From: a virus
Taxonomy: Duplodnaviria; Caudoviricetes
Direction: 5' to 3' (one strand)
IMG/VR virus record: IMGVR_UViG_3300028833_003520
DNA: 64,000 nt
Part shown: in pieces, positions 23,376 to 25,607 of the stretch
How the letters are laid out: each line of letters opens with the position of its first letter
How positions within the stretch are numbered: the first letter of the stretch is position 1
The notes under the pieces: generated by a model
The model's input: only the letters and a program-made list of their open reading frames with translations
Told to the model about the DNA's origin: nothing
Database searches by the model: none
Made by a program: the position numbers and the translations under genes

Positions 23376-23555
23376 TTAACGTCTTTCCTTTAAGAAAGTC
23401 TTGCTATCCATTCCGTTCATATCGGCGGCACGTTTGATAATCTTTTTCTTATCACCGTGAACGCCAGGAATGGGAGTCTGCTTGGGGTCCGAGGCACTGC
23501 AGATGCCGTATTCTTTTGAACCCTTAATTTTTACGATATCGTAAGTTAATGCCAT
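23376..23555 (-). CDS. Small basic protein (59 aa, not in ORF track)
   Basis: AGAAAGGA RBS; MALTYDIVKIKGSKEYGICS...FLKERR. Confidence 0.7.
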   Translation of the reverse strand: MALTYDIVKIKGSKEYGICSASDPKQTPIPGVHGDKKKIIKRAADMNGMDSKTFLKERR

Positions 23556-23613
23556 TCACATATGTTTTCCTTTCTTTAGATTTGATGAAAGACGTATTCA
23601 TTACATCAAGACT

Positions 23614-23697
23614 ACTGATTTAAGGAAGTTGCCTCTCGCTCTGGACAGCGTTCATAACTCAATATTAGGGCAACCTATCTTCCAGCCTTAAATCAGC
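23614..23697 (-). ncRNA. Small structured RNA with potential pseudoknot
   Basis: P1 GCUGAUUUAAGG/CCUUAAAUCAGU; P2 AGGUUGCC/GGCAACUU; hairpin CGCU-GUCCAG-AGCG whose loop can pair with the CUGGA bulge; G-U pairs indicate the - strand. Confidence 0.55.
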
Positions 23698-23717
23698 ACT
23701 ATTCATATAATGAGGCT

Positions 23718-23756
23718 AAAAAAATAGACCATACGGTTTTCCGTATAGTCTATTTT
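23718..23756 (-). terminator. Terminator of the large ncRNA
   Basis: AAAATAGACTATACGG-AAAA-CCGTATGGTCTATTTT-TTT on the - strand. Confidence 0.85.
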
Positions 23757-23779: not shown

Positions 23780-24462
23780 AATTAACATTACAGTATATTA
23801 TATCTGGCTTTTTATCACCTACACCATCTGCACTACTGTTTATCACGCTAATAGGAACACAAGTCTGAGCATAGGCAGGCAACTCCTATACTTCTTGCGT
23901 TGAGCCGAGGCTCCATAGCCTATGAGGGATTGATACCCCCAGCCGTCACCCACTTGGACGAATCCAAGCAAAACCATTCAGAAGAAGTAGGGATATTTCA
24001 TATTCCTAAAAAATCGTCATCTTCTTCCGCCTTGGGCTACAGACAAGTGTGGCTTGCGTTATAGTCACCATTACAGTGACATCACGGCGAATCATCTTGG
24101 GGTGCATTCCCAACAGAGCATCCTCATTTGCGGTGAGGTGGGTAGTAATTAGACGAGTCTAATACTACGCTTATTGGGTTATTCTCCCACAGGGAGCGTC
24201 TATTGCGATGACCACAAGCCCACTTACGCTAACATCATACAGGTGTGTGCTATGTCCCGTGAAACGAATATTGTTATACCGCTTGAACGATGGTCACCCA
24301 AGAATCGACAGTTCCAAATGGAAACCCAAATGGAAGAGCGACGTTCAAATTGCCCACAAGAGAAGTATCCTTCTCTATCAGGCTTTTTCGGTGGGACGTA
24401 CCTCAGCAGGGTGGTTAACCCTTCGTGCACTGAGTTACATATAACACACTGTAATGTCAATT
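23780..24462 (-). ncRNA. Large (~680 nt) structured ncRNA, ROOL-like candidate
   Basis: 24-bp closing helix (24439-24462 with 23780-23803; the three non-WC pairs are all G-U on the - strand); many internal hairpins (CUUGGA-UUCG-UCCAAG, GAGAAG-GAUA-CUUCUC, GUAGUAUUAGAC/GUCUAAUUACUAC); flanked by terminators; no credible ORF. Family assignment rests on size and context only. Confidence 0.78.
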
Positions 24463-24512
24463 CACAACAAAAGTTTTATGAAAAACCGAGTAGGTTTTGA
24501 ATTTAAGGGGAC

Positions 24513-24539
24513 AAAAAGAGGGAGATTTCTCTCCCTCTT
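24513..24539 (-). terminator. Terminator after thyX
   Basis: AAGAGGGAGA-GAAA-TCTCCCTCTT-TTT on the - strand. Confidence 0.85.
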
Positions 24540-24602: not shown

Positions 24603-25607
24603 TTACTGTATTCTTCCGTTAGATGCTTTAACAAGCAGGGGATAAGCAATCTTCATTACTTCGACCATCTGAGGATGAGGCTTGCCTGTAACACCGTGAC
24701 AACGAAGGTTTACGATATGCTGCCACTCACGTTCAGTAGCCGTGATGAAAATCTCGGTCTTGAGTGAGTTAGGCAGTACGCTACGAGCCTCTTGCGGTGT
24801 AGCACCTTTCTCAATGAGTTCGAAGTAAGCCTTTTCACAAGCCTTGCAAGCATTCTTCCAAATCTTGTATTCCTCGCTACTTGTATTCCAGTAGAAAGGT
24901 TCAATGACAGTGATTTCTTCACCGAACTGACCTTTTGTATAGTTGCAGTAGCGTGTGGATTCCTGACCGAAAGATGCAGGTCTGTGTCGCACGAATTCGT
25001 GAGAAACTCCTCTGTCACAAGTGAAAAGAACTGTGTGAACGATGAAATCGGAAGGTTCATCTCCAGAAATTGTGTTAGCAACTTCGTCACGAGGGACAAC
25101 TCTGACAAGAGGACTCTCGTTAAGTTCTTTCTCAATGATAGAGAAGGACATTACGTTATCTTCCTTACAAGTTTCGGTAATTGCAGGGAAGAGTTCAGGG
25201 TAAGCGGCGTGAAGAGCGTGCTGAATGCCGTGTCCGTCACCGACAACAATACCTGTATTAACGAAATCCATCCAAGTGCGGAATGAAGCCATAACGATGC
25301 CTGATACTTCGTCAAATTTCATATAGTTACGCATTGCGTAACGAGGATGCTGGTCAGCGTGTGCAGTCATTGTTGCCCAAATATCTTTCGCAAGATTCTT
25401 TCTGCGGTCGATATAGGCAAGATAGATGTCCTCGTGTTCGAGCATAGCACCGTGCTTGTGTGCAGCGAGACCTTTGACAAATCCGACGGCAGATTCGGGC
25501 GTAATCTTGTCTTCAGACTTGTAACAAGTGCGTCCGACCTTTTCGATAAAGGCATAGGGATGCACATTGTGTTCAATCAGTTGAGCATTAGGTTTGATAA
25601 TGTTCAT
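24603..25607 (-). CDS. thyX: FAD-dependent thymidylate synthase
   Basis: GRTCYKSE, H.AMLEH, RGVSHEFVRHRPASFGQESTRY, EARSVLP, HPQM. Confidence 0.95.
   Translation of the reverse strand: MNIIKPNAQLIEHNVHPYAFIEKVGRTCYKSEDKITPESAVGFVKGLAAHKHGAMLEHEDIYLAYIDRRKNLAKDIWATMTAHADQHPRYAMRNYMKFDEVSGIVMASFRTWMDFVNTGIVVGDGHGIQHALHAAYPELFPAITETCKEDNVMSFSIIEKELNESPLVRVVPRDEVANTISGDEPSDFIVHTVLFTCDRGVSHEFVRHRPASFGQESTRYCNYTKGQFGEEITVIEPFYWNTSSEEYKIWKNACKACEKAYFELIEKGATPQEARSVLPNSLKTEIFITATEREWQHIVNLRCHGVTGKPHPQMVEVMKIAYPLLVKASNGRIQ

Follow-up and report, generated by a model that had tools for sequence, protein, structure and literature searches.

The window analysed here, the whole stretch of 64,000 nucleotides (64 kb) from an IMG/VR virus record, carries a region next to a thymidylate synthase gene whose two ends pair with one another, and it raises the question of whether this region encodes a structured RNA and to which family such an RNA would belong. 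The original prediction had named two possibilities, a relative of ROOL and a new class of large RNA. We scanned all 64 kb with Rfam 15 and identified positions 23787–24458 on the minus strand as ROOL RNA (RF03087; family described by Weinberg et al. 2017, PMC5737381) with a score of 198.1 bits (gathering threshold 99.1, E 4e-43). The match spans model positions 1–574 of 574 and is complete at both ends. About 12 non-canonical pairs are marked in the alignment to RF03087, and the conserved cores CAAUAGACG, GUAGCCCAAG, UCUGAAU, and GCUCAGACUU align with high posterior probability. Besides ROOL, no Rfam family reached its gathering threshold anywhere in the 64 kb, including GOLLD, OLE, raiA, and HEARO. 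The Rfam comparison proposed with the original prediction thus returned a strong ROOL match, which confirmed the RNA and removed its novelty, as had been foreseen. The gene is 672–683 nt long:

23780–24462, minus strand: ROOL RNA gene (covariance-model match 23787–24458, widened by the closing helix P1)

We are highly confident that the minus strand of this region holds a complete ROOL RNA on a large phage-like genome of about 243 kb from rumen/bovine-type metagenomes, and that it forms a separate unit between the terminator of thyX and its own. The window copy is a divergent new member of the known ROOL family and not a new RNA class.

The predicted closing helix was recovered in full: 24462–24439 pairs with 23803–23780 over 24 contiguous bp, with exactly three G-U pairs when read on the minus strand, which would be C-A mismatches on the plus strand. 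This helix is the ordinary P1 of the ROOL family, in which both ends of the RNA pair, as in the molecule whose cage structure has been solved (PMC12286853). It shows the exchanges UA/AU, CG/UA, GC/AU, and UA/CG/AU across four clade members. It could, as originally suggested, also be an RNase III processing stem. The whole element has a minimum free energy of -236.9 kcal/mol, with z-scores against shuffles of -7.2 on the minus strand and -7.0 on the plus strand; because these values are alike, energy alone cannot fix the strand. The minus-strand orientation was correct and is set by the Rfam match, which is strand-specific, and by the G-U pattern. The interior hairpins were likewise borne out. 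Those at 23953–23968, with a UUCG loop (-8.1 kcal/mol, z -3.5), and at 24142–24168 (z -2.65) fold on their own, while those at 24360–24375 and 24402–24434 correspond to the tip of P3a and to P2 in the covariance-model alignment. The long-range pairing of UUGAACG (24348–24342) with CGUUCAA (24289–24283) forms the base of the ROOL helix that is usually capped by a GUGA loop. Alignment to the model and to ROOL relatives on rumen/bovine-type metagenome contigs (L100, L108, and L110) gave the following parts, listed from the 5' end with the two strands of P1 first:

24439–24462, minus strand: 5' strand of the P1 closing helix (24 bp, 3 G-U; compensatory changes in four clade members)
23780–23803, minus strand: 3' strand of the P1 closing helix (24 bp, 3 G-U; compensatory changes in four clade members)
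24402–24434, minus strand: P2 two-tier hairpin, CUCAG...CUGAG around AGGGU-UAACC-ACCCU (model alignment)
24352–24383, minus strand: P3a hairpin with conserved GGAUAC tip (model alignment)
24282–24349, minus strand: P3b helix with UUUGAAC/GUUCAAG base and GUGA-type tip, enlarged here (54 nt vs 12 in the model)
24303–24342, minus strand: insertion of 40 nt in P3b (missing in the aligned L100, L108, and L110)
24197–24205, minus strand: J6/7 invariant core CAAUAGACG (model alignment; invariant among relatives)
24145–24173, minus strand: 29-nt insertion in P8, predicted to form the 24142–24168 hairpin (absent from L100, L108, and L110)
24127–24133, minus strand: L8 loop CCGCAAA, at the site of the family GUGGCAA loop (alignments)
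24097–24108, minus strand: J6/8 strand AAUGCACCCCAA, which in the solved cages pairs with L8 of another copy to give the B4 kissing loop (alignment)
23985–24030, minus strand: variable linker, equivalent to the internal loop that is disordered in the cage (low-confidence loop region in the model alignment)
23953–23968, minus strand: UUCG-capped hairpin inserted 3' of the conserved UCUGAAU (22 nt vs 1 in the model; common to L100)
23870–23890, minus strand: P18 hairpin, whose L18 loop has the same central GC as the family loop U(C/A)GCU

The inner AU pair of P2 is replaced by GC in L108 and L110, and five to six pairs of P3a carry double compensatory changes. The P3b insertion is predicted to add a hairpin of -17 kcal/mol (z -2.3). 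The L18 loop, which is the site of the symmetric bridge B6, reads GUUGCCU as compared with GU(C/A)GCUC in the family; its central GC is kept here and not in L100.

Support for this structure came from homologues of the locus. In L100 (ThyX about 61–63% amino-acid identity), a ROOL scoring 226.8 bits is found two genes 3' of thyX; in L108 (ThyX 52–60% identity), a ROOL scoring 252.5 bits comes immediately after thyX and is itself followed by two tRNAs. L110 and L111 were found in the metagenome collection via a pattern conserved in the window, L100, and L108; their ROOL scores 258.4 bits and lies among tRNAs. In a three-sequence alignment analysed with RNAalifold, 41 of the 161 pairs showed double compensatory changes and 94% of the cells were paired, compared with 4–6 pairs and about 40% of the cells in slid controls, in which the 3' partner was shifted by 1–3 columns. 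The four-sequence alignment gave double changes in 54 of 131 consensus pairs versus 3–9 in slid controls, with 97.7% of the cells paired, covariation being scored in both cases on the same few sequences from which the structure was derived. The covariation among homologues that had been called for at the outset is therefore present. Two further loci were too near-identical to be informative and were left out of this analysis: L097 is identical across the region, and L099, at 98.3% identity, shows nine changes within ROOL (four of them in the variable linker), one of which turns a G-U into a G-C pair and one of which weakens a terminal A-U pair. Identity between the window and L100 is 87% for ROOL and 68% (nucleotide) or 63% (amino acid) for thyX, so the RNA is either more constrained than its coding neighbour or was exchanged more recently.

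These results also bear on whether the element could be an unrelated new large RNA class. Such a reading could draw on a score below that of typical ROOLs and on the absence of DNA-level matches from phage collections: searches of the phage collection with ROOL and with the surrounding 10 kb gave no match, and branch-specific patterns, exact or degenerate and verified on the window and the loci, had no match in viral contigs. These patterns had no match in genome contigs or the first metagenome scan either, and a ThyX-based scan of viral contigs returned no relatives. Nevertheless, the match spans the full model with a score twice the gathering threshold, the helices align along with the invariant core motifs, and L100, L108, and L110 bridge the window copy to typical ROOLs. 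The full-length match together with covariation excludes a new class, to which we assign next to no probability; of the two possibilities named initially, the ROOL relative stood and the new class did not.

The immediate flanks of the ROOL gene contain the following elements:

24603–25607, minus strand: thyX, flavin-dependent thymidylate synthase (Pfam Thy1, PHROG thymidylate synthase), upstream co-oriented neighbour
24511–24539, minus strand: intrinsic terminator of thyX, 5' of ROOL (fold)
24484–24495, minus strand: 12-nt motif ACCTACTCGGTT, 22 nt 5' of P1 (single occurrence in the 64 kb)
23718–23756, minus strand: intrinsic terminator of ROOL (fold)

Both terminators had been anticipated, and both fold well. 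The thyX terminator upstream of ROOL reaches -20.6 kcal/mol (z -5.7), and the terminator of ROOL itself, with a 16-bp stem and a U run, -20.7 kcal/mol (z -7.6). L100 and L108 have terminators at the site of the ROOL terminator, with different stem sequences. A simple consensus terminator scan had missed both terminators of the window. No sigma-70-like promoter upstream of P1 reached the scan threshold. By eye, the best reading in the 50-nt spacer from the thyX terminator to P1 is TTCAAA-17-TAAAAC (24501–24473), a weak match that L108 does not conserve; this tentative candidate would start transcription 3–6 nt before P1. The motif ACCTACTCGGTT recurs 5' of the ROOL of L108 (L108 5195–5206) and not of the closer relative L100, at 22–29 nt from the ROOL 5' end.

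The same flanks speak to the possibility that the region is protein-coding, or a long structured 3'UTR of thyX without an RNA function of its own. ORFs of 78–108 aa do overlap the ROOL region, and ROOL runs in the same direction as thyX with no clear promoter to itself. However, these ORFs have no Pfam match, public gene callers place no gene between thyX and the 59-aa gene in five contigs, and substitutions track base pairing rather than codons, so that the check for a coding signature in the small overlapping ORFs, which formed part of the original prediction, found no coding signal. A 3'UTR is further contradicted by the strong terminator between thyX and the element and by the two genes (L100) or the 177-nt insert (L099) that separate thyX from ROOL in relatives. 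We give this reading hardly any credence and treat the element as a ROOL gene in its own right.

Between the ROOL terminator and the 59-aa ORF (23376–23555) lies another structured element of about 100 nt (23600–23705, minus strand). It is 93% identical to its counterpart in L100 (99/106), while the adjacent small protein is only 63% identical, and it shows one compensatory change, G-C to A-U, in an inner helix. It has no Rfam match, and L108 has tRNAs at the corresponding position.

ROOL lies directly 3' of thyX in the window, and L100 and L108 have the two in the same order. Six other ThyX homologues (P0002, P0004, P0005, P0006, P0007, and P0008) have no ROOL beside thyX, which limits the synteny to a sub-clade. 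In L099, a 177-nt insertion (1665–1842) with a called 69-aa ORF lies between thyX and ROOL, marking the spacer as a site of gene gain or loss. The ThyX of the window has 334 aa, of which Pfam Thy1 matches only residues 188–304 (profile positions 56–167 of 191). Thousands of metagenomic ThyX homologues of about 320–350 aa match it over the full length, many of them on contigs of 80–250 kb; this suggests that a long form of ThyX is specific to phages.

Other products encoded in the window are NrdD, two helicases (one of the SNF2 type, one of the UvrD type), a MoxR-like ATPase, and a Clp-like double AAA ATPase; many of its other ORFs are matched by neither Pfam nor PHROGs. The identical ThyX protein occurs in JGI, ENA, and Logan assemblies, on public contigs as long as 243,504 bp, and one related contig is labelled bovine metagenome. 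We read the host genome as that of a jumbo phage of the rumen or gut; since no structural gene was identified in the 64-kb window, phage-like is the preferred and safe wording. ROOL is situated at the convergence of two gene arms, 1–23331 on the plus strand and 24603–64000 on the minus strand. The ORFs of the plus-strand arm have almost no Pfam or PHROG matches, and the GC skew falls at about 24 kb from about 0.2 to below 0.1.

The divergence of the window copy became apparent by comparison with ROOLs in IMG/VR, where a core motif scan anchored on CAAUAGACG yielded 96 loci. Eighteen of these were scanned with Rfam and carry ROOLs of 294–406 bits, all inside tRNA/tmRNA islands. The window ROOL has about half the typical IMG/VR score and the lowest of all ROOLs examined. 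A tRNA or tmRNA lies within 2 kb of ROOL in 50 of 62 ROOL-bearing loci (median four), as opposed to none in the 64-kb window. A search for a tRNA remnant 3' of the window ROOL returned no tRNA-like match and only a spurious sub-threshold lncRNA match. Ten divergent IMG/VR loci are likewise without tRNA neighbours, and the absence of tRNAs is therefore a minority pattern and not unique to the window. The two inserted hairpins (24303–24342 and 24145–24173), predicted from the fold, appear each to be unique to the window copy. The ROOL of L110 has its own 30-nt insertion just 3' of P2 (at about 680–710), at a site that differs from the window insertions, which indicates that such ornaments are ordinary in the ROOL family and specific to lineages.

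A further difference concerns the pairing of L8 with J6/8, a highly conserved intermolecular kissing loop that forms bridge B4 of the cage (Kretsch et al. 2025, PMC12286853) and appears as a pseudoknot in the 2017 ROOL model (PMC5737381). We located B4 from the Rfam consensus UGGCA/UGCCA and the sequence of the env-120 construct, UUGGUA/UACCAA (6 bp; PMC12286853 supplement). In the other collected ROOLs, B4 comprises 4–6 covarying bp (UGGC/GCCA, UGGU/ACCA, UGGA/UCCA, UAGU/ACUA, and UAGCAC/GUGCUA), and L108 and L110 retain UGGU/ACCA. In contrast, the window loop CCGCAAA and its J6/8 strand AAUGCACCCCAA are complementary only at GCA/UGC (3 bp), and L100 has 2 bp (CG/CG). A match of 2–3 bp is not above chance, and B4 thus appears weakened or rewired in the window/L100 branch, whose assembly into an octamer is accordingly not assured.

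The window/L100 branch could therefore be regarded as ROOL-derived with a rewired quaternary structure, having lost the canonical B4 and gained two hairpins, and it may then assemble otherwise, i.e. with another stoichiometry, as an open shell, as a monomer, or with a required partner. The reduction of the covarying 4–6 bp pairing to 2–3 bp in both members, its retention in the sister loci L108 and L110, and the 40-nt and 29-nt insertions found only in the window copy agree with this view. On the other hand, the conserved 2–3 bp G-C core is in the same register and could still dock, the solved cage has several further bridges, hairpin insertions are common in ROOLs as in L110, and looking for a different covarying partner of J6/8 turned up chance-level matches only. 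On balance we consider such rewiring unlikely. There is correspondingly a small chance that this branch, located by thyX and away from tRNAs, builds an assembly unlike the canonical octameric cage; if so, it would be a natural variant for asking what cage geometry serves.

ROOL forms a homo-octameric RNA-only cage (PMC12286853), as is also stated in the commentary on Ling et al. (PMC12515178). The closest known system is the ROOL family itself with its solved member env-120, a cow-rumen RNA (Kretsch et al. 2025, PMC12286853) that shares with the window ROOL the long terminal P1, the layout of P2, P3a–c, P6–P8, and P17–P18, and a similar size (659 nt vs 672–683 nt). The variable linker, phage context, and rumen/bovine-type source are also common to the window copy and env-120 or the wider family. 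The window copy differs from the family in its score, its two extra hairpins, its L8/J6-8 pairing of 2–3 bp, the lack of a tRNA within 64 kb, and its position after thyX. The ROOLs of Enterococcus faecalis and Firmicutes bacterium CAG:227 (Ling et al. 2025), which we set beside the window copy by description, belong to the same family and, in the account given in PMC12515178, form an octameric cage 28 nm across with a disordered internal loop that can be deleted; unlike the window copy, they are described as bacterial or prophage copies. GOLLD is similarly a large ornate phage/prophage RNA that often lies near tRNAs and forms an RNA-only cage (PMC12286853), but it has a different sequence and fold and is a 14-mer.

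By analogy with the solved homologues, the window ROOL would fold into a flat multi-junction monomer, and eight copies would self-assemble without protein into a hollow cage of about 28 nm across, with the variable linker (24030–23985) presumably inside (PMC12286853; PMC12515178). On its role we speculate that the RNA may be produced in large amounts during infection and, as a structural element free of protein, sequester or scaffold other molecules, possibly with a link to tRNA biology.

Few natural RNAs are known to assemble into a large cage without protein; ROOL is one of them, and one more copy by itself adds little. The window copy, however, defines a divergent rumen jumbo-phage branch with thyX as a fixed neighbour. 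Two of its members, the window copy and L100, are without nearby tRNAs and have an apparently weakened B4 bridge, making the branch a useful contrast for testing whether ROOL function needs tRNA linkage or cage closure.
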